Assembly (NCBI GenBank): GCA_000165345.1
Contig: CM000434.1
Coordinates: 128,001 to 192,000, forward strand
Reading direction: 5' to 3'
Length of the DNA: 64,000 nt
The notes under the pieces were generated by a model. The model was not told where the DNA came from and searched no databases. It saw nothing but the letters and a program-made list of their open reading frames with translations. Position numbers and translations under genes: made by a program. Each line of letters opens with the position of its first letter. Position 1 is the first letter of the stretch. Shown piece by piece: positions 1,299-54,072 of this stretch.

Positions 1299-2939
1299 AT
1301 GAAACAAGATATCAATTATGGAAGGTTAAATAATATTCCTGAAAGTATTTCAAAGAAAAATACAAAAGTAACAACTCCAGTATATGATTATAATTCAAAT
1401 AAATATAGAAGAACAGAGAATATTATAGAAGAAAGTAATAGAGAAATAAACTATTATCCTATTGGATCACAATTAAGAGCAAAAGAATTAGGAAATATTA
1501 ATAAGATAGAAAATAAATACAAGGAAAAAAGACAAAAAAGTATATATAAAGTCCCAATTTCTGTTGAAGTGTGTATTAGATCAGATATTAACTTAATTCA
1601 AAATGAGAGTGATTCAAATGAATCACAGTTAAGCAGAAAATATTTAATACAAAGAATTAAAAAATATTTTTCATTACAAGCAAATGTTGAATTAGGAAAA
1701 GTCGATATTGATCAAATTGGTGATTCATTATTGAGAAAAGTATGTACTGATATAAATCTATCTTTAAACTACCCAATCCAGTCATTTGAAGAAAAATATA
1801 ATAATAATAGCCAATCAAATCCTCATAGTCAAAGAGAGGATAATGAAAATATCCCAATTTACCAAGCCGAATTCAATATATATACTTATCAACTTAATGA
1901 AAAGTCTGAAGAAGAATATTATATGGAAAGTAATACATCAGATGAAAAGAATACAGATCCTCCAATTTGGAAGTATTGGTCACTTCCAAATATAGAATTT
2001 CATGGATTATGGGATGTACTTCACTATGAAAATAATTTAAAGCAACAACTTATAGATTACACATCTACAAGCTTAATTTTAAGTGATTGTCAAATAGATT
2101 TTAATGTAATTAATTGGAATCATTTAATTTTATTGTATGGCTCTCCAGGAACAGGAAAAACTTCCATTTCTAGAGCAATTTCACAAAAAATTGGAATGAG
2201 ATATTGCCATAGGTACAAAAATATATATTTATTGGAAATTAGTGCACATTCACTATTTTCAAAATGGTTTTCAGAAAGTGGAAAAACTGTTGTAAAACTA
2301 TTCTCTAAAATTAAAAGCTTATTGGAAGAACCTGATTCTTTCGTAAATATTGTAATTGATGAAATTGAAAGTATTTCAACTGCAAGAAAACAAAGTTTAG
2401 GAAGAAATGAACCATCTGATAGTATTCGTGTTGTAAATGCATTGCTCACTCAAATTGATGCTTTAAAAAAATACTCAAATACACTAATTATGACAACCAC
2501 TAATATTCCAGATTCAATTGATGAAGCATTTTTAGACAGAGCTGATTTAAAGCTTCATATACCTCTTCCTTCAATCTATACCAGATATACCATTTTACTT
2601 GAATGCATTGAAGAACTCATATTCAAACAAGTCGTTTATTCAAAAAATAGTGATTTTATTAAAATTTTAAGCTTTAAAGAAATAATGAAATATTCAAATC
2701 ATACAGGAAATAATCAAATTGAAAATCCAAATAACTATGATCAACCCCAAATTAATATTTCTAAAAGTCTACTATATATATCAAAAGTTTCCGAGGGTTT
2801 TTCTGGAAGAAATTTAAGAAAGCTTCCATTTGTTTCCTTACTTTCTTCATATCATCATGGTATTCCTCTAGATATTCAAGTTTTTCTCGAAAAAATGAAG
2901 TATATTGTTGATGAAAAACCCGAAATGGTGAAAAGCTAA
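1299..2939 (+). CDS. PCH2: TRIP13/Pch2-family AAA+ ATPase (pachytene checkpoint protein 2 orthologue)
   Basis: Walker A LLYGSPGTGKTS, followed by HSLFSKWFSESGK, IVIDEIESISTARK, EPSDSIRVVNALLTQID, IMTTTNIPDSIDEAFLDRAD and SEGFSGRNLRKLPF. These blocks are near-identical to the conserved blocks of TRIP13/Pch2 as I recall them. ATG start at 1299 and TAA stop. Confidence 0.85.
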   Translation: MKQDINYGRLNNIPESISKKNTKVTTPVYDYNSNKYRRTENIIEESNREINYYPIGSQLRAKELGNINKIENKYKEKRQKSIYKVPISVEVCIRSDINLIQNESDSNESQLSRKYLIQRIKKYFSLQANVELGKVDIDQIGDSLLRKVCTDINLSLNYPIQSFEEKYNNNSQSNPHSQREDNENIPIYQAEFNIYTYQLNEKSEEEYYMESNTSDEKNTDPPIWKYWSLPNIEFHGLWDVLHYENNLKQQLIDYTSTSLILSDCQIDFNVINWNHLILLYGSPGTGKTSISRAISQKIGMRYCHRYKNIYLLEISAHSLFSKWFSESGKTVVKLFSKIKSLLEEPDSFVNIVIDEIESISTARKQSLGRNEPSDSIRVVNALLTQIDALKKYSNTLIMTTTNIPDSIDEAFLDRADLKLHIPLPSIYTRYTILLECIEELIFKQVVYSKNSDFIKILSFKEIMKYSNHTGNNQIENPNNYDQPQINISKSLLYISKVSEGFSGRNLRKLPFVSLLSSYHHGIPLDIQVFLEKMKYIVDEKPEMVKS

Positions 2940-3505
2940 TTTTATTATTATATTTTTATATAAATATAATAATAAATTCACATATTCATTATTCTTCTAC
3001 TTCATTCATGGGAAAACAAATAATTTAATGAAAATCATAAACTAATTCACATTTTTTTATTACATGTTTAAATTCTCAGCCTACCGATTATTTCTCAGCA
3101 TGCTGAATTACACTAAGATCAACATCAGCGCTTCCCGCCTAAATTAATTGTCACAGTTTACCACAATAAATAGTAAAATGGGGTACCGAATAATATAAAA
3201 TAAATAATTGAAGTATAAATAAATATTGGAATATCAATAATTAATGTAATACACTTTTTTTAAACGAATCAAGAGGGTGGACAGGAAGCGGAAAATACAA
3301 TCAATAATATAAATAGACCAAAAGTATTCTAAAAAACTTTTCTGAGTTAAAGAGTTTCAAAATTCTATTATATTTAATAAGGGAAGCTGATAATCGCTTT
3401 AAGCAATAGTTTGATTGGAAATACTATACGGTCACCAATTTTTGAAGATTGGAATTTCTTGATCTGTAAATAGAACAAGTAATAACCTGTAAGTATTTAA
3501 AAAAA

Positions 3506-38258: not shown

Positions 38259-41200
38259 ATGGATCCTGTGGGAGCAATGAAGTCAATGATGGGAATGGTT
38301 GGATCTAACCTAGTTAGTTCAGCAAAACATGCAACTAAGCAAATGGTGAGTAAGATCCGTCAGAAAGCTGATCCCAGATCATATAGTAGCTCAAAAAAGA
38401 AAAAAAATAAAGCTGATAATGGTCAGAATATAGAAGGTACAAATATAAGTGATGACGATGATTTGAATGATTCAATGCTTCCTAATAGAAGAGATCATGG
38501 CAAAGAAGCAAGGAATAGAGATATAAATGGAGAAAATCTGGAAGTTAACAGTAATTTAACTCATGAATCATCAGATGACGAGTCAATTTTGGATTTTAGA
38601 GATCGAGTTGTAACAGAACAAGAATTCAAGAGATTAGCAGAACTTCTTGGTAGAGATATAAAAATGACAAATAGAGGTAATTCTGAAATGGAGAAACAAA
38701 TATGGTTAACTCCAAGAAGATTTAGGACTACAATACGATCAGTGCAGATTGAAAATCTAACAAAAATTGAACAGAAGAATGTATTTTTAGAATTTTCATT
38801 TGGAGGAACACTTACAGAAGTTAGACTATTGAATAGTAATACCGGCCAAGAAGTTCCAAGATTGTTGGGATATCCAGCATGCAAAGAATTTTTTACACAT
38901 ACTGTTGATATTAAACCGTTTTATATTGAAAATAATGATGAGTTACTTATTGATATTCCTGATGAAAATGGTAAAGACTATGATATGGAGCTCAAAAATA
39001 ATAATTCGATTGAAATTTCATTAGATGAAACTTTTGAATGGAGAGGTAGTTATTTACATTTAGAAAGGGAATTATTTAGAATTATTGCTTGGAGAGCTAA
39101 TTCAGCAACTGTTAATGAGTTATTAGGATATAATGAAGATATATTAAAAAATTATGCAACGGGAAGTGTTAATCAAATGATTACTTTATCAAAAAGAACA
39201 CATAATAATATATCAAATCCTATTTTTAGAATTACATTACAAATTATATTTCAAGAAATTTATGATTTTCAACTAAGCCTATCTCAATTCACTTTAAGAA
39301 ATATTAGTAATGACAATGAGAATTCCTCTCCTTCAGAACGAAAACATTCTCAAAATATTTATAATGATCATGAAATTGAATATAATCATGACAAAAAAAG
39401 TAACAAAAAGCAAACTAGTCGTGATAATACAAATATAATTAACGATCAAAATACTGTAAAAATTGATTTGAGAGATGATCAAGAATTAAATTTTAATGAA
39501 AAAGGAAGGCTTATTTCTAATAATCATTCAACATCTTGTAGATTGAATATCAAGTTCCCATCTTTTGGAATAGATAATCCTTTACCAACTAAATGTACTT
39601 CAACTTGGTCAGAATGTTATGAGAAACAAAATAAAATTATTAGATGGGATAATATTGGTATGATTCCTTTTAGAGGTACAATACATGAATTGGAAAGAAA
39701 TAATTTACATGCAAATTTAGAAATTAATTCAACTGGCAAAACTCATAATATTTTTAAATCTACAAAACAAGTCCATTGTACTTTTAATCTTAAAAATATT
39801 GTCTATTATCCCTATATTCAGACTGAAATTAAGCTTCCTGATGGAGAATCTTGTATACTTGAAGGAAAAATAGAATTTGGAAATATACCCAAATATCATC
39901 AATTGGGTAATATTTTAGAAATTGATGATGAAAATAAATTATATCTTATAATCAAAATTATTCGAATTGATAATTTAATCTTGAACATTTATGAAGTCAA
40001 CAATATTCTTCAAGATACTGAAAATGATGATTCTATGGATGTTTATGTTCAGTTAAGCTTTGATGGTAATCGAAAAGAAACGCCTGTAGTTTCTGGTACA
40101 TTACATCCACTCTTTCAAACTGAACTTACATTTATATTGGATTATATTGATCATGAAAAAAAGCCTAACGAACTTGACGCTCATTCTTTAGCCAAACTTT
40201 TAGAAAGAAAAGGTCCGATTGTTATTGATGTGTGGAGAAAAAATAAATCATCAATGGCACAACATTTAGGATGGACTGAAATTCATTGGAAAGATATTCT
40301 AATAAAAACTAATCATTCAAATTATTCTGGAAATGAATTTTCTGATTTAAAATTAAATCAACAATTCTCACCTTTAAAATTTGACCCTACTAATAATTTA
40401 ATGGACAATGCTAGTAATGCATGCTTAGGCGCCAACATGCTTAGGCGCCAAGAATACCGAAAATTTTATGATCGCAATATAGGTAAAGAAGTTGTATATG
40501 AAACAAGAGTATATCAGGATGCGAGTATATTATATAATTTAGGTCAAAGGCCCAGTTCTTTAGGGTCTTATACAAATGAAACAATCTCGCCGAAAGTATA
40601 TTTGGAAATATGGACAAAGCCTGATATAAGTTGCATGTATAATATTGGTTCAACGTCAGCATTACTAGTAAGAGGTAATAATGAAGTTGTGGGAGAAGTT
40701 TCTAAATATTTTGTTGATCGATTAAATAGAATTGTTGAGTGGTCAGGCATTGGTCCATCATTAAAGAATTCAAGAATAAGATCAAATATTTTTTATTGGG
40801 AATATGTTACTAAATCATTTGAGACTTGGGGAAGACAATATTCATATTATAGTTTGGATTCAAGAGGTGTAAGGCACTTACTTCCATCATTCTTACAACC
40901 TTTAAAACCTCTTACTGGTGTTGATAATTCCTCAAAAGTACATCATTTTATTCATTCTTTTCCATATTTACCAACTACAAATAATGAAATATGGAGAACT
41001 CCTGATTTATTCTTATTATCAAGACAAGGTACTCCATTTGATCATACATTATTGCAGGTATGTTTATTATTGGGTTTAAATAGAATAGCTTTTTTGGCAT
41101 GCGGTACTTTATTGAATAGAGATCCATATTCATGGGCAGTAACTATACATTATGAGTATATTATGAGTGAAAATGATGATTTATTTAATTTAAGTAAGGA

Positions 41201-43256
41201 TGGAAATTTATTTAAAAAAGAATCTCATGGAATTGGAGGTAGAAGTAGGAGAGTTTCTACTCTTAATTTTGGAAGAAATAAAAAACATAGTAATATGAGG
41301 TCAATATCACCAGCATTAATGAAGACAACATCTGATAGGAAGAATTATAAATCAGAAAAAAGTCATATATTAGGATCTAATCGAAGTAAAATGAGGTCAT
41401 TATCTCCAATTTCTATTAATCTTGGTCAAAGGATGCATAGGAAGTCATCTATTATTAATGATAATGAACATCGATTTAGTTTAAGTAAATCAACTGAAGC
41501 AATTCATGATCATAATCATAATACATCATCAAAAAATAGTATTAGACAAAATTCTATAAGATTTTATGCATTATTTTGGGATACTGTAAAACATGTTGTT
41601 TATAGAGTTAATGATATTGTTCAAGAATCAAAACATGATGAATTTATTCAATGGATTAAAGAAGAAGGATATGATATTAATCAGTTAAATGAATTAGCAT
41701 TAGAATCATTATTTTCTCAAAGAAATTATCATCAAGATAAATATAGAAATATACAATATAAACCAAATTTCTGTTTAAAAGTTATTAATAAGTTACCATA
41801 TAGAACTTTGGATTTATTGGTTAATAATAAAAATATATATGCAAATATACAACAAGTTAATGATCCATTAAAATTATCATATAATTTAAATGATAGTAAG
41901 CTTTGGTATTCATTCTTTCCAAAAAAAACTGATCAATTTAATCATATTAAAATGAATAATCAAAGAATTCAAGGAGAAATTGAAGGTAAAGGAATATTAA
42001 ATCAATTACCAATAACACAAAATAGTTCAAATATATCAGCATGTTTTTCATGGCCAATAATTAATCTTGTAACTGATACTACTAGTAATAAACCTGGAAA
42101 GAATAATAAAGGAAGATCAGTTACTGGTGATTATCATATTCATAATAATAATAGTAATAATGATTATTTTGATCAAGATCAATTTGGAAGATCTAATAAT
42201 AAAGATAAGAATATTAATGGTATTATTGGTAATGATCATAAGAGTAAAGGTAAAGCAAATAACGGTTTAAAATCATCTACTGGAATGAGTTTTGGATTAA
42301 ATAGGTCAAAAGATGAACATTCAAGTATAGAGAAGAAGTTTTTAGAGAATAATGTGATTATGGATGCTGAACTAGATTTATATTGTAGAAGTATTAATGA
42401 TGAGATTATGAGATATGTACAGATTCAAAGATTTCAAAAATCACGTACAATAGGTACAAGATGGAATAGAGAAAACGAGAATATGATATTTTTAAGAATG
42501 GGATTAAAGTTATTAGGTAAATGGGAGATGTCAGATCCATATACTCGTGATTATTATAAAAATAAGACTGAATTTTTGAAATGGAGAGAATCATTTTTAT
42601 CAACAGTACCAACAAAATATAGGATGAAATATGCAATATTGACTTTTCCATGTAATGTTCCAAAATGGATAGCACAACAAGTTTGGTTTAAATGTAGCTT
42701 TTTATCAAATGAGACTGATAAAAGATCAATATTTTCTTTATCAGTAGATATTAATAGTTGGCCAAATAATATTCAATCAATAAGGATATTAATATTGGTA
42801 GTACATCCTTTGAAATCTAATCAGCTTAGAAAGCTTCAATTATTACAAAAGATGAGTATATCAAATTCAGTTAGTAACAATAATATCAATAACAACAATA
42901 ATAATAACAATAATAGTAACAATATTCATCAAACAATGAAGATTAATATAAAAGGTCCTTCCAGGAATGAAAGAGAAAATATTTCTGATTCAATTAAAGA
43001 AGATAATAATAAAGGTAATGATAAAGTAACAAAGCAAGGTTTGGATAAATTAGAAATTCCAGAATTCTCAAATGAATTATTGATAAAGGAGAGTGATAAA
43101 AAGAGCGTGGATGAGGATAAGGATGAGAAAAAGAAGGAAGATAAAGAGGAAAAGAAGAAAAAGGATAACAATAGCGAAAAAGAGAGAAGAAGAGCATCTT
43201 CAATTATATTCTCAGACGAAGAAGATGAGCCTGAGCTTAAACTGTTACATCCATAA
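38259..43256 (+). CDS. Very large hypothetical protein (1665 aa) with C2-like beta-sandwich regions in the N-terminal half and a basic, K/E/D-rich C-terminal tail
   Basis: Complete ATG to TAA ORF. Segments such as DVYVQLSFDGNRKETPVVSGTLHPLFQTELTF look like a C2 domain. No firm family assignment. Confidence 0.5.
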   Translation: MDPVGAMKSMMGMVGSNLVSSAKHATKQMVSKIRQKADPRSYSSSKKKKNKADNGQNIEGTNISDDDDLNDSMLPNRRDHGKEARNRDINGENLEVNSNLTHESSDDESILDFRDRVVTEQEFKRLAELLGRDIKMTNRGNSEMEKQIWLTPRRFRTTIRSVQIENLTKIEQKNVFLEFSFGGTLTEVRLLNSNTGQEVPRLLGYPACKEFFTHTVDIKPFYIENNDELLIDIPDENGKDYDMELKNNNSIEISLDETFEWRGSYLHLERELFRIIAWRANSATVNELLGYNEDILKNYATGSVNQMITLSKRTHNNISNPIFRITLQIIFQEIYDFQLSLSQFTLRNISNDNENSSPSERKHSQNIYNDHEIEYNHDKKSNKKQTSRDNTNIINDQNTVKIDLRDDQELNFNEKGRLISNNHSTSCRLNIKFPSFGIDNPLPTKCTSTWSECYEKQNKIIRWDNIGMIPFRGTIHELERNNLHANLEINSTGKTHNIFKSTKQVHCTFNLKNIVYYPYIQTEIKLPDGESCILEGKIEFGNIPKYHQLGNILEIDDENKLYLIIKIIRIDNLILNIYEVNNILQDTENDDSMDVYVQLSFDGNRKETPVVSGTLHPLFQTELTFILDYIDHEKKPNELDAHSLAKLLERKGPIVIDVWRKNKSSMAQHLGWTEIHWKDILIKTNHSNYSGNEFSDLKLNQQFSPLKFDPTNNLMDNASNACLGANMLRRQEYRKFYDRNIGKEVVYETRVYQDASILYNLGQRPSSLGSYTNETISPKVYLEIWTKPDISCMYNIGSTSALLVRGNNEVVGEVSKYFVDRLNRIVEWSGIGPSLKNSRIRSNIFYWEYVTKSFETWGRQYSYYSLDSRGVRHLLPSFLQPLKPLTGVDNSSKVHHFIHSFPYLPTTNNEIWRTPDLFLLSRQGTPFDHTLLQVCLLLGLNRIAFLACGTLLNRDPYSWAVTIHYEYIMSENDDLFNLSKDGNLFKKESHGIGGRSRRVSTLNFGRNKKHSNMRSISPALMKTTSDRKNYKSEKSHILGSNRSKMRSLSPISINLGQRMHRKSSIINDNEHRFSLSKSTEAIHDHNHNTSSKNSIRQNSIRFYALFWDTVKHVVYRVNDIVQESKHDEFIQWIKEEGYDINQLNELALESLFSQRNYHQDKYRNIQYKPNFCLKVINKLPYRTLDLLVNNKNIYANIQQVNDPLKLSYNLNDSKLWYSFFPKKTDQFNHIKMNNQRIQGEIEGKGILNQLPITQNSSNISACFSWPIINLVTDTTSNKPGKNNKGRSVTGDYHIHNNNSNNDYFDQDQFGRSNNKDKNINGIIGNDHKSKGKANNGLKSSTGMSFGLNRSKDEHSSIEKKFLENNVIMDAELDLYCRSINDEIMRYVQIQRFQKSRTIGTRWNRENENMIFLRMGLKLLGKWEMSDPYTRDYYKNKTEFLKWRESFLSTVPTKYRMKYAILTFPCNVPKWIAQQVWFKCSFLSNETDKRSIFSLSVDINSWPNNIQSIRILILVVHPLKSNQLRKLQLLQKMSISNSVSNNNINNNNNNNNNSNNIHQTMKINIKGPSRNERENISDSIKEDNNKGNDKVTKQGLDKLEIPEFSNELLIKESDKKSVDEDKDEKKKEDKEEKKKKDNNSEKERRRASSIIFSDEEDEPELKLLHP
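40420..40451 (+). repeat. Perfect tandem duplication of the 16-mer CATGCTTAGGCGCCAA inside the 38259-43256 CDS
   Basis: Two identical adjacent copies (40420-40435 and 40436-40451), each containing the E2F-type GGCGCC core. The unit length is not a multiple of three, yet the ORF remains open across both copies. Confidence 0.8.
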
Positions 43257-43466: not shown

Positions 43467-44525
43467 TTAGAAATCTGCATTCAAATCAAACTTTTGGTCA
43501 TCTTGATTGACCATAACTCCAGCCATTTGATATTCACCAACTCTCTTTTCGAAGAAGTTAGTTTTACCTTGAAGTGAAATAAGGTCCATCCAATCAAAAG
43601 GATTAGAAACGTTGTAGATTTTTGGAATATCCAAGGCAAAAAGTAATCTATCAGCAACAAATTCAATATATTGGGCCATAAGTCTCGAATTCATACCAAT
43701 AAGATCAACAGGAAGAGAGTCACAAAGAAAGTTTCTTTCAACTTCAACAGCTTCTGATATGATTTGTTGTACTCTAGGAGCTGGTAATTTAAATTTAAGG
43801 GCTTTATATATTAAACAAGCAAAATCAGCATGGAGACCTTCATCACGACTAATAAGTTCATTAGAAAATGTGAGTCCAGGCATAAGTCCACGTTTTTTAA
43901 GCCAAAAAATTGCACAAAAGCTACCAGAAAATAGAATTCCTTCAACAGCACAGAATCCAATAATTCTTTCAGCAAAAGATCGCTCAGAATTCATCCATTT
44001 AGTTGCCCATTCTGCTTTCTTTTTTACAGCTTCAATATGAGAAATTGCTTCAAAGAGCATTTGACGTTCTTTAATTTCAGTAATATATCTATCAATAAGT
44101 AATGAATAAGTTTCACTATGTATTTGTTCAATAGACATTTGAAAAGCATAATACATTCTAGCTTCCGGTATTTGTATTTCTCTAAGGAAATTTACTGCTA
44201 AGTTTTCCATAACAATACCATCACTTGCAGCAAAGAATGCTAAAACATATTTGATAAAATGTCTTTCAGGGTCTTTAAGACTTTCCCAATCTCTAGTATC
44301 TTGACTTAGATCAATTTCTTCAGTAACCCAAAACGACGCTTCAGCTTTTTTATACATTGACCAAATATCTTTAATTAATTCTTTCAATTCATTTCTATTT
44401 TCTCGGCTGTATTTAAGCATTGGTTCATTAACTTGATTTATTTTTACTTCATTCACAAGTTTTTCAATATTTTCTTCATCTTTTGTTTCCTTTGTTAAAA
44501 TTACATTATTATTTTCCTCTGTCAT
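43467..44525 (-). CDS. RNR2: Ribonucleotide reductase small subunit (R2), apparently catalytically competent, 352 aa
   Basis: [16 protein letters not shown] with the Asp ligand. [25 protein letters not shown] with the Glu and His ligands and the radical Tyr (E-x2-H-x3-Y). [23 protein letters not shown] and [10 protein letters not shown] with the second Glu and His pair. The C-terminus ends ...KFDLNADF, the R1-binding tail. Confidence 0.93.
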
Positions 44526-44794
44526 CTTTTTTTTCCTTTTTTTAAATTGATTTTAGTTACTCTCTATGTTTACTATTTTGATATTAATATTAATTTACGT
44601 GTGTGTTATTATTATATTATTAATATTTAAAAAATATATATATTTTTTAAAAGAAAAAAAAGAAAAACAAATATTATTACAAATAAATATTTTTATTTTA
44701 AAAAATTTATTAATTTTCTTTAATTTGTCTTTGTGCATATTGTTTTCTTTCAATTTATTGATTTACCTGAAATTTATTATTACTTTCTGTGTAT

Positions 44795-44895
44795 TGGCGC
44801 CTAATGACCTGTTAAAAAAGGTATCGATAAATGTATTTATAAGATAATTAAATGATGGGGGGCGGTGAGTTCAAAAAATGTGGGAAAAGGCGGGC
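44795..44895. promoter_or_regulatory. Shared bidirectional promoter of the two R2 genes, containing TTGGCGCC (44795-44802), a G-rich GGGGGGCGG stretch (44857-44865) and AAAAGGCGGGC (44885-44895)
   Basis: E2F-type sites midway between the two divergent start codons (44525 and 45420). Confidence 0.55.
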
Positions 44896-45419
44896 TATTT
44901 GCATGTCAATAGTAGTAGTTTTTACGATAGTTATTTAAAATTTTATTGATAATAAATGAATAAATCATTAATAGAATAAAACATTATTGTAGGAACAAGA
45001 ATAGAAATGTCGAGATATAAAGTATTTATTCTAGAGATTTAAGATTTGAAAAATACGATTTTACTTACTTTCAACTTTTTCTTTTTTCCCACTTTCTTCC
45101 ATTTTTTTTCTCCCCCAATTATTTTATATTTGTATTAATTATTTGAATAAGAGAAATAATTTATTTCATTTTTATTTTTTAAGTAAAAGAAAGAAATATA
45201 GATGGAAAAATTATAAGAAGGAAGAAAAAAATAAATAGGAAAGAAAAATTCAAAAATTCTTTTTTTTTCTCTAAATATTTTCAAGTATGAGACGGCGTAT
45301 AGGTACCCGGTATACTCACTCTCCCCTCTTTTTCATCAATTTTTTGCACACAAAAAAAAAATAAAAAACAAGAAAAATAAAAAAATTTGAATCAAATTAA
45401 TTAATTAAAGGAGAAAAAA

Positions 45420-46439
45420 ATGAATGAATCAAAGAAAGAATTATTAGAACAGCAAAAAAATGAATCAATCTTATTAGATAATCCTTTTAGATGGGTTTTA
45501 TTTCCAATAAAATATAGTAGATTATGGAGTTTGTATAAAAAATATGAGGTATCATTTTGGACAGCAGAAGTAATATCACCAATGGAAGATAAGACAAAAT
45601 TAATGAATATGGACGAAAAATTACTTGATTATATTGAAATGGCCTTTGCAAAACGTATTTATATTGATAATACATGCTTAGATACTGTATTGTTAACATG
45701 TGAATTATTAGGACAAGTACAAGTACCAGAAGCAAGAGGTTACTTTTCATTTACAATGTGTATGGAGAATATATATAAGGAATTATTTATGAATTATGTT
45801 GAAATGATACGTAAAAATAAGGAAAAGATTGAAAGGACAGATGAAGTGGAAAAGAAGGATGAGAATAATTTAAATAGTAAAATATCTAAAGAAGAATATG
45901 AATATAATTTAGAGAAGAAATTGAATGAATTAGAAGATTTTACAAAAATGAAGGAATTAGTTGGTAATTTTTACGATGAAGATACTTTATTTAGTGAAAA
46001 ACTTATCTATTATGTAATAATTAAAAAGATATTCTCATCTAGTATTCATTTACTTAGATTATCTTTTTCAATGAGAAATATATCAGAATCTGAATTACCT
46101 ACTCAACTTTGTGATGGTTTAGATAGAATACGTAGAGATGAACAATATCAAGTTGAGTTTTGTTTAAGTATTGCAAAATCTATGAAAACTAAACCAAGTA
46201 ATGATCAAGTAGTTAATTTATTAGAGCAAGCTATTATGTTAGAGAAGAACTTTATATTTTCAATTGTAGATCCACAAGTTCTTCAAATTGAAAGAGAAGA
46301 TATTGTTGCTTTTCTTTTATTTAATGCTGATGAAATACTTGTAGATTTAAAGTATCCAAGACAATTCAATGTTTCTAATCCATTCATAAATATTATGAAC
46401 GATTTTCCGTGCTCCTTCTCAAGAAGAAGCTGTTGCTAG
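45420..46439 (+). CDS. Divergent R2-like paralogue lacking the di-iron ligand His and the radical Tyr. It is a probable catalytically inactive R2, analogous to the yeast Rnr4-type partner subunit. The 3' end is probably frameshifted.
   Basis: The R2 fold blocks are conserved: FPIKYSRLWSLYKKYEVSFWTAE, VQVPEARGYFSFTMCMENIYKELF, ILVDLKYPRQFNVSNPF. In the ENIHSEMY motif the His is replaced by Tyr and the Tyr by Phe (ENIYKELF). The first Asp-ligand region (AFAKRIYIDN) is also degenerate. Confidence 0.8.
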   Translation: MNESKKELLEQQKNESILLDNPFRWVLFPIKYSRLWSLYKKYEVSFWTAEVISPMEDKTKLMNMDEKLLDYIEMAFAKRIYIDNTCLDTVLLTCELLGQVQVPEARGYFSFTMCMENIYKELFMNYVEMIRKNKEKIERTDEVEKKDENNLNSKISKEEYEYNLEKKLNELEDFTKMKELVGNFYDEDTLFSEKLIYYVIIKKIFSSSIHLLRLSFSMRNISESELPTQLCDGLDRIRRDEQYQVEFCLSIAKSMKTKPSNDQVVNLLEQAIMLEKNFIFSIVDPQVLQIEREDIVAFLLFNADEILVDLKYPRQFNVSNPFINIMNDFPCSFSRRSCC

Positions 46440-47073
46440 ACAAACTCTTACACAAACTCTTAAAGCTGCTCATTATAAAGCTTACCTAGAAATTTTTAGC
46501 AATCAATTGTCAACTTCTCAAGATTTCTAATTCACACTGNANNNNNAGTTTTTTTTTTGATTCTTACTAATTATTATCTATAATTATTAGAAAATAATAT
46601 ATTAATGTTATTAATAATTCAAATTGTTTATATTAATTCTTAATCTTTTATTACTTAACATAATATGAAGATCCAAATCGAAATATTAAACAATTGATTT
46701 GAAATAGAAGTAAAAGATATTAAAACTATTAAAAAAAAGAAAATAGGAATAGAGAATAGAGAATAAATATATGAACTAATAATAATATATATAAACATTG
46801 AAAGTAAAATAAATAAGGAAATAGATATTTTTCTTTTGACACTAAATTTATTTATTATCCTAATAACTATATAAAGTGTCCATATATTATTGTTATTATA
46901 TTTTACATATATTTTTCCTGTAAAAATAAATTATGTTTAAAATCAACTCAACTCAATCTTTTATTTCAAAAATAACAATAATGTTTAAAACAATAAATCT
47001 TTCATATCATAACCCTTTTTTTTCAACTTTTCATTTATTTTTTCTCCACTATAAAAAAATGACGTGTCAAAGC

Positions 47074-47163
47074 TTCCCGCCCAATTCCATTTAATATATT
47101 ATCAAATATACATTTTTGAATGGAATTCATTCATGCAGGCATTATATACATGTTATTGGCGCC
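47074..47163. promoter_or_regulatory. E2F-like TTCCCGCC (47074-47081) and TTGGCGCC (47156-47163), with a CATGCAGGC between them, located 3' of both flanking convergent genes
   Basis: These are promoter-type motifs in a region where no annotated gene starts. Confidence 0.35.
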
Positions 47164-47178
47164 ATTTGAAATTTGTAT

Positions 47179-48549
47179 TTAAGATCTTACCATTAATCTT
47201 CTAGAGTTTGGATTTTGGATTCTAGCTGATTCAGCAACCTCTGTAGTAGTGGTAGTGGTAGTAGTGGTAGTTGTAGTTGTGGTAGTTGTAGTTGTGGTAG
47301 TTGTAGTTGTAGTAGTTGTGGTAGTTGTGGTTGTAGTAGTAGTTGATGTAGAAGTTGATGATGTAGAAGTTGTTGATGTAGAAGTTGTAGGTACTGGAAT
47401 AGGTGGACCAAACTTATTTGTAAAGTTATTTAAAGCCAAAGCATCTCCCTTGTTAAAGATTCCAAAAGCTGGGAAAAATGAATTGTTATCTTTATCAATA
47501 CCAACAAGTCTATAATCAAATGAAGAAGGTAATGGTTCCAAAGGAGTGCCAGAAATAAATTCTGGTAATACATTATCATAAGTAACCACAGCAAAGAATA
47601 AAACTGTAATTAATCCTGTTGGATTAACATTTGGTTTTAATGATGGATAACTCAAACCTCTACCAAGTAAAATTAATCCACCATCTGGTTGACGGCCAAC
47701 AGCTTTTACAATAGCACAAACATTCACATGCTCAGATTTACCAAAGAATGGACCATTAGTATAAGTCTCTGCTCTACATACTTCATTCTTATCTGTCATA
47801 TAATCCAAAATAAGTGATTGAGAATTATCTTGATGTTCAGCAGTTGCTAAACTACAATGTTGTGGCAAACTATTAAGAGACATAATAGAAGGAACAACAA
47901 ATTTACCCTTAACCATATTATATCCAAATACAACTTCATCTTGAGCCCTATTACATGCACCTTTTGCAGCAAATTTACCTCCCCAAAATTTCTCAATACC
48001 TCTCATATCAATATCTCTTGTATCTGTTAATAAATCCAACATTGTACCATACATCATACCAGTTGGAATTACATCAGGTTGTAAACCAACTTCCAAAATA
48101 CACATTAAATCACGACTATTTTGTATTAAATCATCAACACTCGTTATATTGTAAATTGTACCTTTTTCACAATGACCATCTCTTGTAAAAGGAAGAGTTA
48201 AATAATTTCTATTTTCAACTCTTGGTCCTCCAAATATTGGAATACCTGGAATATTAAATGATTTAGATTCAACTCTTTGATCATTAGAATCTGATAAACT
48301 ATTTACATTTTGTGAAAATCTATCTCCTCTATTCATTAATGGATCAACAACTCTTTTTGAAAGTAATTGTGCTCTATTTCTAAATGAATCCATATTCCCA
48401 CCAGAATTTGGTTGAAATGAAGAGCCTTGTTGTGGTAATGAAGAAGAAATTCCTGTTGGAATACAACTAACTTTACCAAAATCCAAAATTAAACCCAAAA
48501 CAAAGTAAAATATAGATACCTTAAATATATTATTACTAATATTCATCAT
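47179..48549 (-). CDS. Secreted mucin-like protein: signal peptide, a roughly 370-aa Cys-containing globular domain, and a C-terminal run of about 50 Thr (and some Ser) residues
   Basis: N-terminal MMNISNNIFKVSIFYFVLGLILDF. Cys residues are spaced through the middle of the protein. The C-terminus is TTSTSTTSTSSTSTSTTTTT...T followed by EVAESARIQNPNSRRLMVRS. Confidence 0.6.
   Translation of the reverse strand: MMNISNNIFKVSIFYFVLGLILDFGKVSCIPTGISSSLPQQGSSFQPNSGGNMDSFRNRAQLLSKRVVDPLMNRGDRFSQNVNSLSDSNDQRVESKSFNIPGIPIFGGPRVENRNYLTLPFTRDGHCEKGTIYNITSVDDLIQNSRDLMCILEVGLQPDVIPTGMMYGTMLDLLTDTRDIDMRGIEKFWGGKFAAKGACNRAQDEVVFGYNMVKGKFVVPSIMSLNSLPQHCSLATAEHQDNSQSLILDYMTDKNEVCRAETYTNGPFFGKSEHVNVCAIVKAVGRQPDGGLILLGRGLSYPSLKPNVNPTGLITVLFFAVVTYDNVLPEFISGTPLEPLPSSFDYRLVGIDKDNNSFFPAFGIFNKGDALALNNFTNKFGPPIPVPTTSTSTTSTSSTSTSTTTTTTTTTTTTTTTTTTTTTTTTTTTTTTTTTTEVAESARIQNPNSRRLMVRS
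47243..47392 (-). repeat. Imperfect tandem array of 18-21-nt units (GTAGTTGTAGTTGTGGTA...) encoding the poly-Thr tract
   Basis: Direct tandem repeats are visible on the + strand. A tract of this type is a likely source of length polymorphism between isolates. Confidence 0.8.
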
Positions 48550-50799: not shown

Positions 50800-53700
50800 G
50801 CTCAAATGGTATTTAGAAGACTTAAAGAATCTGATGAAGTTAGAAATATGAGAAGACCATCATGTTTTATTCTTGTATATAGAGAATATACTTGGAAATA
50901 TATTAATACTGATCATTTATTACCTGGTGATATTATTGCAATTTCATCCACAATTTCTTCCAATTCTTTAAAAAATAAGAATTTTGATGAAAATAATAAT
51001 AATAATAATCAAGATGAAGAAGCAGTTTCTATTGCTCCTTGTGATTTTGTATTATTATCTGGAAGTATTACTGTAAATGAAGCAATGCTTACTGGTGAAT
51101 GTACTCCAAAAATGAAAGTATCAATGAATAATGACGAAGATGAAAATGAACAAGATAATAAATTGAATGAAAAGACTTTTGATATTGATGGATTTAAAAA
51201 TCATGTAATATTTGCAGGTACCAATATTATACTTACAAGATCTTCAATTGTTACAGAAAATAAAGAGTTCCAATCTATTATTAAAAAGATTTCAAATGAA
51301 TACCATAATTGTTATAATGTTGATAATATGAACTCTATTAAGAATCCAATGAACTTTAATGAAAAGTATAATAATAATGTCACTTCTTCTTACATTAAAT
51401 ATGATAATGATAAAATGATTTGTATTGGATATGTTCTTAGAACTGGATTTAATACTTATCAAGGAAAATTAATCCGTACAATTTCATCATCAGCTGAAAA
51501 GATCTCATCTAACAGTCTTGAATCACTAATTTTCTTAATGATGTTAATTTTTTGCTCATTAATAGCATCTTCTTATGTACTTTATTATGGAATTAATGAT
51601 CCTTCCAGAAATAAATTCAAATTAATTATCTCCTGCATTCACATTATAACTTCAGTTATTCCTCCAGAATTCCCCATCACACTTTCTGTTGCTGTAACTA
51701 TGGCAGTTGTTCAATTAACCAAAAAAAAGATTTATTGTACTGAACCATTTAGAATTCCATTTGCTGGTAAACTTAGAATATGTGCTTTTGATAAAACTGG
51801 TACTTTAACTAGTGATAAAATGATACCACATGGATTATTTGGAATTAACTTGTATAATAATGATGATACTTCTTGTATTACTTTTGATGATAATGATAAG
51901 TATAGTAATAACAATGAAGATAAGGATGAGATGAACAATAAAAAGTTAGCATCAGTATCGGGATCAAGGCAAGTGTTGGGATCAGAACCAATATCCAATT
52001 CTTCTGTTGATATACCATATTTATCTGATCTTATTATGGGATGTTGTAATGGACTTTCACTTAATGGAAAGACCTTGGTTGGAGATCCTATGGAAAAATC
52101 CATCAAAAAGAAATCATCCTGGAGAATTCATCACTCATCTGAAAATAATTATCATAACATTAAAGATAATTCAACATTTTCAATAGTTAGAAGATATCCT
52201 TTTTCACCAGAAGAACAAAGAATGACCAATATTGGAATTTTGCATATTCCTTCAGAAAAACAAAATTCATCATCAAGTAAATCTCAAACTTCTTCATCTT
52301 CATCTCAATCTCTATCTCCGTCTCATTCTGTAAAATTTCATAAAAGTCTTTCAAAACCTGATCCAAAAACTTATGGTCTTGTCATTTCTAAAGGAAGTCC
52401 AGAAATGATGCTTCAATTCTTTAAAAAAGATCCAGAATTTGATCAAAATTTATACAAAAATGTTGTACATGAATGTACTAAAAAAGGGTATCGTATATTA
52501 GCACTTGGTTCAAAATATTCTTGTATTAATGAAGTTAATAATCATCATTTAAAAAGAGAATTCTTTGAAAATGATTTAATATTTTGTGGTTTTCTTGCAT
52601 TATATTGTCCAATTAAAAAACATTCCAAATCTGTTATTCAAGAACTTAATCAAAGTAATCATCAATGTATTATGATTACTGGTGACAATATTCTTACAGC
52701 TTTCCATGTTGCAAAAAATGTATCAATTACCAATAATTGTAAAGATATACTCATTTTATCAAAATCTGATAATGAAAACTCTAATCATATTAATTATATA
52801 TGGAAATATTCAAATGGTAATATTTTTAATAAATTTGATAATAATTTAACTCATTTAATTCATATTAATAATGAATTTAATATTGGTATTACTGGTAATG
52901 TATTCCAATCTTTTATTGAAGACTTCAAAGAAACCAAAATACTTGAACAATTTCTTTTATTTACAAAAATATATGCAAGAATGTCTCCAAAAAATAAACA
53001 AACTCTTATTAATCTTTATAATAATATGGGTAATATGACTTTAATGTGTGGAGATGGTACCAATGATGTTGGTGCTTTAAAACATTCTCATGTTGGTATT
53101 TCTCTTCTTTCAAATGAATCATCATCAGATTCTAATAATAAAGATAATAATAATTCTCCATTTAATATTAAAAAAAATCAAAAATCCAACTTTTTTGAAA
53201 TTAAAAAAGATATTGAAGCCAGAATTAGACGTGGTGAAAAGCTTACAAAAGCTCAAATTCAACAAGAAATCTTGAAAGAATTCCAAAATATGGATGAAAT
53301 ACCAAAAGTAAAACTTGGAGATGCTTCTATTGCTTCACCTTTTACATATAAAGGTGAATCTCCCAATTGTATTATTAAACTTGTTAGATATGGAAGATCA
53401 ACTTTAACCACAGTATTATTAATGTATAAATTAATGGGATTAAATAGTATTGTATCTGCATTTTCTATGAGTGTATTAGCTCATGATGGAGTTAAATTTG
53501 GTGATTTTCAAACTACTGTAGAATCCATTATTATGAGTGGCTTATTCTTTCTTGTACTTAAAAACAAGCCAGCTAAAAAGCTTGTTCCACAAAAACCACC
53601 AAATAGTATTTTCAGTCCTATGATATTTTTATCATTTATTATTCAAGCATTAATTCATTTATTTGTTATTTATTTTGGATGGAAAATTTCATATTCTTTA

Positions 53701-54072
53701 ATGCCATTAAACTATTCAACAAATATTGATGGACCTTTTGAACCAAATATTATTAATACAACAATGTATTATTTATATACAGCTTGTCACTTAGCTTGTT
53801 TTCTTTCAAATGCACAAGGTCATCCATTTACTACTCCATTATCTGAAAATAAATATCTTATTTACACTTCAGCTTTAGTTATTTCATTCTTAATTACTTC
53901 AATTCTAGGAATATTTCCACATTTAAATATATTATTTTCATTGGTAACTTTACAAAGTAAATATTATCAATCAATTCTAATACTTCTTGTATTATTTGAT
54001 ATTTTTGGTACTCTATTAATTAATCAATTATTTAATCAACTTCATATTTACTTTGACAAATGCAAACATTAA
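50800..54072 (+). CDS. P5A-type P-type ATPase, remainder, in the same frame immediately after the TAA
   Basis: EAQMVFRRLKESDEVRNMRRP... continues the Spf1 alignment (EATLVQQQMRNMSEIRKM). It has PGDIIAIS, TVNEAMLTGECTPKMK, the P5A motif IPPEFPITLS, the phosphorylation site ICAFDKTGTLT, MITGDN and MCGDGTNDVGALK, followed by the C-terminal transmembrane helices. Confidence 0.85.
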   Translation, partial: AQMVFRRLKESDEVRNMRRPSCFILVYREYTWKYINTDHLLPGDIIAISSTISSNSLKNKNFDENNNNNNQDEEAVSIAPCDFVLLSGSITVNEAMLTGECTPKMKVSMNNDEDENEQDNKLNEKTFDIDGFKNHVIFAGTNIILTRSSIVTENKEFQSIIKKISNEYHNCYNVDNMNSIKNPMNFNEKYNNNVTSSYIKYDNDKMICIGYVLRTGFNTYQGKLIRTISSSAEKISSNSLESLIFLMMLIFCSLIASSYVLYYGINDPSRNKFKLIISCIHIITSVIPPEFPITLSVAVTMAVVQLTKKKIYCTEPFRIPFAGKLRICAFDKTGTLTSDKMIPHGLFGINLYNNDDTSCITFDDNDKYSNNNEDKDEMNNKKLASVSGSRQVLGSEPISNSSVDIPYLSDLIMGCCNGLSLNGKTLVGDPMEKSIKKKSSWRIHHSSENNYHNIKDNSTFSIVRRYPFSPEEQRMTNIGILHIPSEKQNSSSSKSQTSSSSSQSLSPSHSVKFHKSLSKPDPKTYGLVISKGSPEMMLQFFKKDPEFDQNLYKNVVHECTKKGYRILALGSKYSCINEVNNHHLKREFFENDLIFCGFLALYCPIKKHSKSVIQELNQSNHQCIMITGDNILTAFHVAKNVSITNNCKDILILSKSDNENSNHINYIWKYSNGNIFNKFDNNLTHLIHINNEFNIGITGNVFQSFIEDFKETKILEQFLLFTKIYARMSPKNKQTLINLYNNMGNMTLMCGDGTNDVGALKHSHVGISLLSNESSSDSNNKDNNNSPFNIKKNQKSNFFEIKKDIEARIRRGEKLTKAQIQQEILKEFQNMDEIPKVKLGDASIASPFTYKGESPNCIIKLVRYGRSTLTTVLLMYKLMGLNSIVSAFSMSVLAHDGVKFGDFQTTVESIIMSGLFFLVLKNKPAKKLVPQKPPNSIFSPMIFLSFIIQALIHLFVIYFGWKISYSLMPLNYSTNIDGPFEPNIINTTMYYLYTACHLACFLSNAQGHPFTTPLSENKYLIYTSALVISFLITSILGIFPHLNILFSLVTLQSKYYQSILILLVLFDIFGTLLINQLFNQLHIYFDKCKH

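Follow-up and report, generated by a model that had tools for sequence, protein, structure and literature searches.

The head-to-head ribonucleotide reductase small-subunit pair of Cryptosporidium parvum: an orthodox R2_e1 and an apicomplexan-specific R2_e2 predicted to be noncatalytic

An apicomplexan clade of ribonucleotide reductase (RNR) small subunits, R2_e2, was described by Munro, Jacob & Silva (2013, J Mol Evol 77:92; PMC3824934) and includes R4 of Plasmodium falciparum (PfR4). That study reported maximum-likelihood (ML) and Bayesian support of 99%/1.00 together with SH tests, gave a lysine at Hogbom position 16 as unique to R2_e2, and found that the radical tyrosine of the clade is not conserved outside Plasmodium while the C-terminal motif is strongly conserved. 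It also recorded phenylalanine as the radical-site residue of three Cryptosporidium species, the adjacency of the Cryptosporidium R2 paralogues and the conservation of their C-terminus, and proposed a Y4-like (Rnr4) interpretation. Rnr4 of yeast is presented there as unable to form a di-iron center and as a possible chaperone in an alpha2-beta-beta' holoenzyme with Rnr2. The published interpretation of R2_e2 as a noncatalytic partner of the active subunit draws in addition on PfR4, which interacts with PfR2 and R1 according to Bracchi-Ricard et al. 2005 as relayed in PMC3824934.

The window analyzed here is a 64-kb (64,000-nucleotide) stretch of chromosome 6 of C. parvum Iowa II in the 2004 assembly. 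Two of its open reading frames (ORFs) match the Iowa II proteins EAK89769.1 and XP_001388304.1 exactly, and published primers map to them, which gives the locus tags cgd6_690 and cgd6_700. A first-pass annotation of this DNA had proposed a head-to-head pair of R2 genes, one active and one dead; both ORFs are present at the coordinates it gave, and these coordinates, the Pfam matches and a ligand table confirm the proposal. The locus is the C. parvum RNR small-subunit pair, comprising the orthodox R2_e1 (cgd6_690) and the apicomplexan-specific R2_e2 (cgd6_700). This active/inactive pair is real but already known. GenBank has labeled cgd6_690 a 'duplicated adjacent gene' since 2004, and the pair is not new because XP_001388304, the 339-aa product of the window, is already listed among the R2_e2 clade members in the Munro 2013 supplement and interpreted in that work (PMC3824934). 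The inactive partner, which the annotation did not assign to a described gene, is therefore a described one.

The minus-strand gene, cgd6_690 (43467..44525), encodes a 352-aa canonical class Ia small subunit (EAK89769.1) that matches Pfam PF00268 at E = 8.5e-102 and P. yoelii R2 at E = 4e-134. Its residues W66, D102, E133, H136, Y140, E195, E229, H232 and Y332 align unambiguously to W103, D139, E170, H173, Y177, E233, E267, H270 and Y370 of mouse R2. Column by column, the alignment bears out the early reading that every di-iron ligand and the radical tyrosine are kept, with six of six metal ligands (Asp, Glu, His, Glu, Glu, His) and the radical Tyr Y140 (mouse Y177 / E. coli Y122) in place alongside the C-terminal Tyr. 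The C-terminus, ...KFDLNADF, aligns with FxLxxDF, the R1-binding peptide, and all functional residues are shared with canonical eukaryotic R2 (mouse R2, human RRM2/p53R2, P. vivax and P. yoelii). Judged by these residues, cgd6_690 is an ordinary R2 of the catalytically competent class Ia type.

The plus-strand paralogue, cgd6_700 (45420..46530; XP_001388304 / EAZ51498.1), has a true product of 369 aa that matches the full PF00268 profile (positions 1-281, E = 4.1e-38) and is 24-28% identical to canonical eukaryotic R2, with a common fold. An AF2 model of the C. tyzzeri orthologue (97% identical to cgd6_700; pLDDT 83.7) aligned in Foldseek to P. vivax, human and mouse R2 at TM 0.88-0.90, and model and Pfam match agree with the initial view that this copy keeps the R2 fold. 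It differs from canonical R2 in an 8-residue break of helix B, which falls at the first ligand in the model, in a low-confidence insert of ~45 residues after helix C, and in the tail ahead of the terminal motif. We compiled a ligand table from 11 R2_e2 orthologues, 9 Cryptosporidium R2_e1 and 7 other canonical R2 proteins, in which the cgd6_700 site reads E116, Y119 (for His), F123 (for the radical Tyr), Lys (for Glu233; Ile in the register of the Munro alignment), E241 and Q244 (for His270). The motif ENIYKELF was thus read correctly at the outset as His to Tyr and radical Tyr to Phe, and the metal and radical substitutions are seen in each of the 11 Cryptosporidium species compared, the radical position being Phe but Leu in C. 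bovis. Across 14 R2_e2 sequences the residues of the dead site are invariant. As for the first Asp-ligand region, which had been called degenerate, the 8-residue break is there, but the ligand position itself is ambiguous because this non-helical insertion precedes an invariant Asp88. Both His ligands and one Glu ligand, three of the six in all, are lost together with the radical Tyr, so that cgd6_700 should be unable to assemble a di-iron-tyrosyl cofactor, and its sequence predicts that it is not a catalytically competent class Ia R2.

In this assembly cgd6_700 appears as a 339-aa ORF that ends at 46439 with ...FPCSFSRRSCC and a stop, where the first-pass annotation had also ended the gene. 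Comparison with C. tyzzeri DNA and newer assemblies moves the true end to 46530: the ORF stops early because of a 1-nt insertion, an extra G at 46409 (plus strand), which is an error of the 2004 Iowa II assembly. The window reads TTTTCCGTGCTCC at this point and C. tyzzeri reads TTTTCCTGCTCC, and removal of the G restores the conserved tail ...FPAPSQEEAVARQTLTQTLK... The 369-aa protein is present in four newer C. parvum assemblies and is likewise intact in C. hominis and C. tyzzeri. Downstream of the extra G the tail frame carries four base differences from other assemblies, and ambiguous bases (NANNNNN, 46540..46546) 10 nt past the true stop mark low-quality sequence beside the frameshift and these substitutions. 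The corrected protein ends ...NQFSTSQDF, aligned with the canonical FxLxxDF, and its F-x-x-x-x-D-F tail is predicted to be of the R1-docking type. The 40-residue tail that ends in this motif is invariant across 14 R2_e2 sequences and is the most conserved part of the protein; the error shortened the Iowa II gene model and therefore hid the putative docking tail, and the C. parvum R2_e2 entry used in PMC3824934 is the shortened version.

The two genes diverge, as first described, from a single 894-bp region (44526..45419). Eight further Cryptosporidium species, C. muris among them, keep this arrangement, with 501-904 bp between the two genes, and show the same five-gene order. Cross-species alignment delineates two conserved noncoding blocks within the region. 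Block A (44730..44832), in which the E2F-like palindrome TTGGCGCC (44794-44801) is followed by TAATGAC(C/G)TG, aligns over about 100 bp in C. parvum, C. tyzzeri, the chipmunk genotype, C. ubiquitum and C. canis. Its site reads TTTTGGCGCCAAGGTGTG in C. felis and TCGGCGGCAA in C. bovis and C. ryanae, and is absent from the orthologous region of C. muris; the TTGGCGCC site is conserved in six of nine species and in C. parvum is separated from the start codons of cgd6_690 and cgd6_700 by 271 and 624 bp, respectively. Motif search and alignment also located E2F-like / G-box-type motifs at 44857..44894, namely GGGGGGCGG (44857-44865), conserved only in C. parvum and C. tyzzeri, and GGCGGG (44889-44894), shared in addition with the chipmunk genotype. 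Block B (45278..45317), whose core GAGACG(G/C)CG (45289-45297) precedes the start codon of cgd6_700 by ~126 bp, takes the palindromic form AGACGCCGTCT in most species. It stands 93-279 bp ahead of the R2_e2 start codon in C. parvum, C. ubiquitum, C. canis, C. felis, C. muris, the chipmunk genotype and C. tyzzeri, the last with a core one base shorter (GAGACG-CGT), and was not seen in the orthologous regions of C. bovis or C. ryanae. Only the orthologous regions of C. ubiquitum, C. canis and C. felis contain the strict TTTSSCGC form, and strict E2F motifs were not found in those of C. muris, C. bovis and C. ryanae.

Upstream motifs of C. parvum have been studied previously (Oberstaller et al. 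2013, PMC3734150; Mullapudi et al. 2007, PMC1779779; bioRxiv 10.1101/2025.01.17.633476), and we found no paper in the literature that names the cgd6_690/cgd6_700 intergenic region. The E2F-like families of C. parvum include motif 3, [C/G]GCGC[G/C], which TTGGCGCC matches, and motif 4, GGCGGG (PMC3734150), so the report of E2F-type sites between the genes stands. According to the same body of work, Cryptosporidium is the only apicomplexan genus to retain E2F, E2F is the dominant open-chromatin motif genome-wide, and the annotation of ATAC-seq regulatory peaks assigns over half of them to bidirectional promoters. Within the 64-kb window, GGCGCC (7 copies, 0.08 expected) and GGCGGG (9 copies, 0.30 expected) far exceed chance, and 10 of the 19 inter-ORF regions contain an E2F-like hexamer. 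Such motifs are therefore no specific marker of S-phase genes or of the RNR pair, and the S-phase expression that had been read from them does not follow. The idea of a shared E2F promoter survives in part: a conserved site does lie between the genes, but it sits in the block nearer cgd6_690 while a different element stands beside cgd6_700, so no single shared promoter is established. That E2F/DP factors drive both genes from the divergent region is plausible but unproven.

Published RT-PCR data (PMC3305300 supplement) show that cgd6_700 is transcribed with a time course parallel to that of cgd6_690, both transcripts being near 0 at 2 h, peaking at 6 h, dipping ~18-fold at 12 h and remaining high at 24-48 h. 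The coexpression suggested in the first-pass annotation is consistent with these parallel courses and with a log-median correlation of r = 0.955 (n = 7), but the correlation falls to a nonsignificant r = 0.74 once the 2-h zero is removed; the neighboring gene cgd6_680 gives r = 0.03 in the same data. At most time points the cgd6_700 transcript is 2-7 times the cgd6_690 level. The dN/dS ratio is 0.06-0.15 for R2_e2 versus 0.02-0.08 for R2_e1, values by which cgd6_700 is under purifying selection, and 139 columns are invariant in an alignment of 14 R2_e2 sequences.

We consider it probable, if well short of certain, that cgd6_700 is a noncatalytic R2_e2 partner of the active R2_e1, with a plausible E2F/DP drive from the divergent region. 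By homology to PfR4 and analogy with Rnr4, it would serve as the noncatalytic beta' of an alpha2-beta-beta' holoenzyme, where it might stabilize the single radical-generating subunit or help to load it and would contribute a second R1-docking tail. The invariant 40-residue tail with its FSTSQDF motif, the loss of all cofactor chemistry and the transcript excess over cgd6_690 would also suit a regulator, in which a radical-less beta, as homodimer or heterodimer, occupies R1 by its tail and limits or times RNR as a competitive inhibitor or buffer. We regard this as unlikely, since known eukaryotic RNR inhibitors such as Sml1 and Spd1 are small, unrelated proteins. Coexpression with the active subunit and the PfR2-PfR4-R1 complex of Plasmodium, as the clade description relays it, also fit an integral subunit better. 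Because ligands and Tyr are lost while the docking tail is invariant and the transcript exceeds that of the active subunit, a 'decoy' beta that sets R1 engagement, coexpressed with the active subunit from the E2F-bearing region, is conceivable; we give it a slim chance, and if true it would be a form of RNR control for which no other eukaryote offers a described example.

The partner reading places cgd6_700 in R2_e2, and several traits argue for that placement: it is listed and groups with the clade, carries Lys at Hogbom position 16, has a non-Tyr radical position and retains the conserved tail. In Cryptosporidium R2_e2 the Glu ligand next to this Lys (position 15) is lost, as in Plasmodium R4, and in the alignment the cgd6_700 segment IIKKIF corresponds to ISKVLF in the R2_e2 of Plasmodium, Babesia and Theileria, where canonical R2 has AVEGIFF; the signatures FRWV(L/M)FP, MCMENI and LKYP are likewise common to Cryptosporidium R2_e2 and Plasmodium R4. 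In a neighbor-joining (NJ) bootstrap, a method liable to long-branch attraction on branches of this length, all R2_e2 were monophyletic in 200/200 replicates and Cryptosporidium e2 grouped with e1 in 0/200. On these sequence grounds, cgd6_700 is a member of the R2_e2 clade and an orthologue of PfR4. A Cryptosporidium-specific tandem duplication of cgd6_690, with the PfR4 grouping produced by long-branch attraction, would account for R2 genes being adjacent only in Cryptosporidium and for some database scores: a Cryptosporidium R2_e2 profile retrieves canonical R2s at E about 1e-35, with no Plasmodium, Theileria or Babesia R2_e2 among its top 120 matches, and PfR4 scores canonical R2 above Cryptosporidium R2_e2. 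Over the same core region, however, that profile gives PfR4 117 bits versus 82 bits for zebrafish R2, and the shared derived motifs, the Lys 16/Glu 15 state, the NJ result and the published ML, Bayesian and SH support make such a duplication very improbable. The R2_e2 paralogue, whose restriction to one lineage had been posed as a question for phylogeny, is apicomplexan and not confined to Cryptosporidium; among the proteins compared, its ligand loss is deepest there.

Some metal-free class Ie proteins have Tyr and Lys in the former metal site, as cgd6_700 does with Y119 and its Lys, and class Ie structures are among the distant Foldseek matches. Phenylalanine at the radical position is, moreover, also the state of R2c and R2lox (PMC3824934). 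It nonetheless seems hardly credible that cgd6_700 carries another cofactor, as a metal-free or alternative-metal radical protein or oxidase perhaps using Y119: class Ie keeps the radical Tyr where Phe (Leu in C. bovis) is found here, R2c and R2lox keep all six ligands, with Glu for the first Asp, whereas cgd6_700 lacks both His and one Glu, and helix B is broken at the first ligand. Rnr4, with the same His-to-Tyr change, is reported to lack the di-iron center residues and possibly to act as a chaperone (PMC3824934). Membership of cgd6_700 in R2c/R2lox (Mn/Fe, Phe at the radical site) was rejected on the ligand losses and the different clade, and no NrdI-type partner is evident within the 64-kb window. 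A decaying or unexpressed pseudogene, to which the early stop and the four further tail-frame differences could point, is refuted by the confinement of the frameshift to one extra G beside an N-run in the 2004 assembly, the intact 369-aa protein elsewhere, the low dN/dS, the 139 invariant columns and the transcription of the gene.

RNR is essential in Cryptosporidium, as conditional deletion of the RNR gene cgd6_1950 abolishes growth (PMC12368253); cgd6_1950 is on chromosome 6, outside the window. Such a parasite-specific subunit, whose tail differs from the human FTLDADF, has previously been put forward as a handle for drug targeting (PMC3824934). Our additions are modest and leave the classification of cgd6_700 unchanged: a gene model error in Iowa II that hid the tail, the most ligand-depleted R2_e2 compared, a divergent pair with two upstream blocks conserved in most of the genus, and transcription of the inactive copy alongside the active one.

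Relative to its described counterparts, the C. parvum protein is closest in descent to PfR4, which keeps ENIH...Y and RDEYLH, whereas Cryptosporidium R2_e2 has lost both His (to Tyr and to Gln) and the Tyr and is, by alignment, the most ligand-depleted of the R2_e2 proteins compared. PfR4 is the one orthologue studied so far, and because it retains His, ExxH and the radical Tyr, its biochemistry may not transfer to the more degenerate Cryptosporidium protein. The genes are also divergent (head to head) here, in contrast to the 'in tandem' of PMC3824934. Yeast Rnr4 (Y4; PDB 1JK0 chain B / 1SMS) is the best PDB sequence match of cgd6_700 (E = 3.6e-27), and the two share the His-to-Tyr change in MENIY, the loss of three of six ligands and the R2 fold. 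Rnr4, however, keeps Tyr at the radical position (Tyr183) and Glu239 and has His179 to Tyr, Glu273 to Arg and His276 to Tyr, whereas cgd6_700 has Tyr to Phe, Glu to Lys at the Glu239 equivalent and His to Gln and keeps the second ExxH Glu; His to Tyr alone of the Y4 substitution set is common to both. We therefore rejected membership in the Rnr4 family, given the separate clade, the only partly matching substitutions and the Tyr kept by Rnr4. Of the original proposal of a noncatalytic partner of the Rnr4 type, the partner role agrees with the published interpretation for the clade while the family assignment fails. Rnr4, a product of the fungal Rnr2/Rnr4 duplication, falls inside the orthodox eukaryotic R2_e1, whereas R2_e2 forms its own clade and cgd6_700 groups there in the NJ analysis rather than with fungal or other canonical R2, so that Rnr4 is a functional model of independent origin, and cgd6_700 may, by analogy, work like it.

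The divergent R2 pair joins a canonical small subunit, cgd6_690 (43467-44525, minus strand), to a paralogue with altered ligand and radical residues, cgd6_700 (45420-46530, plus strand), a distinction drawn in the first-pass annotation and borne out here by Pfam, by alignment with mouse R2 and by a 27-sequence alignment. Both proteins match PF00268 (E = 8.5e-102 for cgd6_690; E = 4.1e-38 for cgd6_700, over profile positions 1-281 of 281), and cgd6_690 aligns nearly gaplessly with mouse R2. Its functional residues are W66, D102, E133, H136, Y140, E195, E229, H232 and Y332, which the alignment columns place opposite W103, D139, E170, H173, Y177, E233, E267, H270 and Y370 of the mouse protein. 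The larger alignment comprised 9 Cryptosporidium proteins of the orthodox eukaryotic clade R2_e1, 7 other canonical R2 proteins and 11 Cryptosporidium orthologues of cgd6_700. In 11 of 11 orthologues the first ExxH motif has become E-x-x-Y, the second has become E-x-x-Q, and the helix E Glu is replaced by Lys (Ile by the register of the Munro alignment); the radical Tyr is replaced by Phe, or by Leu in C. bovis. Column by column, the substitutions fall at ligand and radical positions as first proposed, with the first Asp ligand ambiguous: in the MAFFT alignment an insertion of 8 residues precedes an invariant Asp88 (LDTV). A di-iron-tyrosyl site is impossible in cgd6_700. An AlphaFold2 model of the C. 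tyzzeri orthologue, 97% identical to cgd6_700 (pLDDT 83.7, pTM 0.83), gives target-normalised TM scores of 0.88-0.90 against eukaryotic R2 structures, and in it helix B is interrupted at residues 81-88 by a non-helical stretch directly before Asp88.

Both R2 ORFs, in an AT-rich window (GC 0.20-0.29), are exact matches to C. parvum Iowa II proteins, the cgd6_700 product being EAZ51498.1/XP_001388304.1 (339 amino acids as assembled). Locus tags were set by mapping the RT-PCR primers of Mauzy et al. 2012 (PMC3305300 supplement) onto the window, which places cgd6_680 at 38259-43256, cgd6_710 at 47179-48549 (minus strand) and cgd6_720 at 50806-54072 around the pair. The tags cgd6_1950/cgd6_1960 were considered for the pair and ruled out: cgd6_1960 is a GalNAc transferase, and the CRISPR guide for the targeted RNR gene cgd6_1950 is absent from the window. 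The gene called "ribonucleotide reductase" under the tag cgd6_1950 (PMC1779779, PMC12368253) is another chromosome-6 locus and not the small-subunit pair, and the published RNR knockout targeted this gene, which lies outside the window (PMC12368253).

Gene order is common to C. tyzzeri, the chipmunk genotype, C. ubiquitum, C. canis, C. felis, C. bovis, C. ryanae and C. muris and runs through five genes: a C2/CEPT76-peptidase gene, R2_e1 (minus), the cgd6_700 orthologue (plus), a Thr-rich gene (minus) and a P-type ATPase. The first of these, cgd6_680, is an intronless ORF of 1665 amino acids whose end is separated by 210 bp from that of cgd6_690 (3' end); its orthologues, syntenic in 9 of 9 species, have precomputed Pfam matches to C2 and CEPT76-peptidase (CEP76-like protein). 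Its coding sequence carries a perfect 16-bp tandem duplication at 40420-40451 (CATGCTTAGGCGCCAA twice), across which the ORF remains open (ACLGANMLRRQ), though 16 is not divisible by 3. The Thr-rich gene, cgd6_710, lies downstream of the R2 paralogue in all species and encodes 456 amino acids, with a signal-peptide-like hydrophobic N-terminus, a C-terminal run of ~45 Thr/Ser residues (mucin-like) and no Pfam match on record. We also note that C. tyzzeri R2_e1 (2267-3325 of its comparison sequence, L001) is annotated at 327 amino acids versus 350-353 in other species; its start was probably set too far downstream, because the upstream frame, after a stop codon, holds 15 further residues.

The end of cgd6_700 at 46439, as originally called, is an artefact: in orthologues, and likewise in four newer C. 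parvum assemblies, the product has 369 amino acids and terminates in ...FPAPSQEEAVARQTLTQTLKAAHYKTYQEISSNQFSTSQDF. The window reads TTTTCCGTGCTCC versus TTTTCCTGCTCC in C. tyzzeri, and the frame without the G at 46409 stays open until a stop codon at 46528-46530. Four more differences from an otherwise invariant tail, all non-synonymous, fall within the final 60 nt (46470 onward), and an N-run comes after the gene at 46540-46546. On this sequence evidence the frameshift region is poor-quality sequence of the 2004 assembly and not gene decay. The extra G, the tail differences and the N-run together leave the reference XP_001388304 (339 amino acids) without a conserved 40-residue tail, and the R2_e2 alignment in print used this truncated entry as its C. 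parvum sequence (PMC3824934). The full terminus preserves FxxxxDF, aligned with the canonical R1-binding peptide.

Pairwise dN/dS is 0.06-0.15 among cgd6_700 orthologues versus 0.02-0.08 among cgd6_690 orthologues, the value of 0.42 for cgd6_700 between C. parvum and C. tyzzeri resting on very few changes and being inflated by the tail errors of the window; 139 columns are invariant across 14 R2_e2 sequences. By RT-PCR, both R2 transcripts are undetectable at 2 h and reach their maximum at 6 h; after an ~18-fold drop at 12 h they return to high levels at 24-48 h and are lower at 72 h (Mauzy 2012, PMC3305300). As to the co-expression anticipated for the pair, the time courses run parallel (log-median values, r = 0.955, n = 7), but the correlation falls to r = 0.74, not significant, without the 2-h point. 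The neighbouring cgd6_680 is uncorrelated in the same data (r = 0.03), and cgd6_700 transcript levels are generally higher than those of cgd6_690. The latter belongs to expression cluster 108, with assorted housekeeping genes (Oberstaller 2013 supplement, PMC3734150). cgd6_700 is a maintained, expressed gene, and a pseudogene reading is excluded by the artefactual nature of the frameshift, the low dN/dS and transcription.

The first-pass annotation had assigned the dead copy to no described gene, but it is already described and annotated, as a named member of R2_e2, an apicomplexan-specific R2 clade sister to R2_e1 (Munro, Jacob & Silva 2013, PMC3824934). The entry "Cryptosporidium parvum Iowa II XP_001388304" in the R2_e2 list of that study's supplement is exactly the cgd6_700 product. 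The same authors reported Phe at the radical position in three Cryptosporidium R2_e2 proteins, conserved C-terminal residues, and adjacency of the two R2 paralogues only in Cryptosporidium (PMC3824934). Plain similarity searches did not make the R2_e2 relationship visible, the top 120 hits of a profile search consisted, below the Cryptosporidium orthologues, of canonical R2s alone, and pairwise scores on R2_e2 versus canonical affinity were mixed. Cryptosporidium R2_e2 and Plasmodium R4 nevertheless have FRWV(L/M)FP, MCMENI and LKYP in common in the published alignment, and Lys at Hogbom position 16 with loss of the position 15 Glu is common to all R2_e2, including Cryptosporidium. A profile of Cryptosporidium R2_e2, with one and the same core region compared, scores 117 bits against PfR4 versus 82 bits against zebrafish R2. 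In neighbor-joining trees, 200/200 bootstrap replicates kept R2_e2 monophyletic and 0/200 joined Cryptosporidium e1 with e2, subject to a long-branch caveat. On these bootstraps and the shared signatures, a lineage-specific tandem duplicate is rejected.

The 894-bp divergent region (44526-45419), with candidate elements TTGGCGCC and GAGACGGCG, does contain TTGGCGCC (44794-44801) and GGCGGG (44889-44894) as first reported, and TTGGCGCC and GGCGGG match two E2F-like motif families of C. parvum (PMC3734150). Among apicomplexan genera, Cryptosporidium alone is reported to retain E2F/DP; open chromatin in sporozoites has E2F as its dominant motif, and over half of the regulatory peaks carry a bidirectional annotation (bioRxiv 10.1101/2025.01.17.633476). 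Across the 64-kb window, GGCGCC occurs 7 times versus 0.08 expected and GGCGGG 9 times versus 0.30 expected. Of 18 E2F-like hexamers, 16 are between ORFs; the only two inside any window ORF lie one in each copy of the cgd6_680 duplication. Since 10 of 19 inter-ORF regions carry such a hexamer, the E2F-like motif is genuine but generic. TTGGCGCC, whose distance to the start codon is 271 bp for cgd6_690 and 624 bp for cgd6_700, sits in a ~100-bp block (44730-44832) alignable across five intestinal species; C. felis keeps the site as TTTTGGCGCCAAGGTGTG amid different flanking sequence, the variant TCGGCGGCAA is present in C. bovis and C. ryanae, and the orthologous region of C. muris has none. 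The GGCGGG of the divergent region is kept only in the closest relatives. In seven species, C. muris among them, the R2_e2 ATG is preceded at a distance of 93-279 bp by a second block (45278-45317; comparison sequences L002 at ~3727, L006 at ~3722, L008 at ~3908, L005 at ~3809 and L003 at ~3848), with core GAGACG(G/C)CG, one base shorter in C. tyzzeri, and, in most species, the palindrome AGACGCCGTCT. GAGACGSCG is close to unique in the window (2 matches at <=1 mismatch versus 0.35 expected) and has no obvious match among described C. parvum motif families. The two blocks suggest that each R2 gene may have its own proximal element. The shared E2F promoter proposed earlier stands as to its sites and their E2F-like families, but the motif is generic and the second block lies upstream of R2_e2; a single shared promoter is plausible. 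The 3' ends of cgd6_700 and cgd6_710 face each other across a gap (47058-47165) in which TGACGTG, CCCGCC (47076) and TTGGCGCC (47156-47163) repeat the combination seen in the upstream block TTGGCGCCTAATGACGTG; the gap holds no ORF of at least 60 amino acids and may be the promoter of an unannotated or antisense/non-coding transcript.

cgd6_700 has an intact R2 fold, is under purifying selection and is transcribed in parallel with cgd6_690 in the RT-PCR data. It probably serves an alpha2-beta-beta' RNR as its non-catalytic beta', in which role it would stabilise or load cgd6_690 and supply a second R1-docking tail. The main rival explanation is that cgd6_700 acts as a decoy or regulatory subunit. 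That it carries an alternative cofactor is unlikely, and the ligand pattern rules out membership in R2c, R2lox or class Ie. The R2 pair was already known; the observation is confirmed, and its functional reading broadly matches the literature, in which PfR4, the Plasmodium orthologue, is reported to interact with PfR2 and R1 (Bracchi-Ricard et al. 2005, as cited in PMC3824934).

Yeast Rnr4 is the top PDB sequence match of cgd6_700 (E = 3.6e-27), and the two have in common the His-to-Tyr change within MENIY. The Rnr4-type partner envisaged in the first-pass annotation holds for this change and for the non-catalytic reading, but Rnr4 falls within the orthodox clade (PMC3824934) whereas cgd6_700 belongs to R2_e2, and their losses differ: Rnr4 retains Tyr at the radical position as well as Glu239, with Arg in place of Glu273 and Tyr in place of His276. 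The resemblance is convergent. Within R2_e2, P. falciparum R4 retains ENIH...Y and RDEYLH, unlike the Cryptosporidium proteins, and in Babesia and Theileria both His ligands are present but the second ExxH Glu is gone; judged by aligned residues, Cryptosporidium is the most ligand-depleted R2_e2 among those compared.
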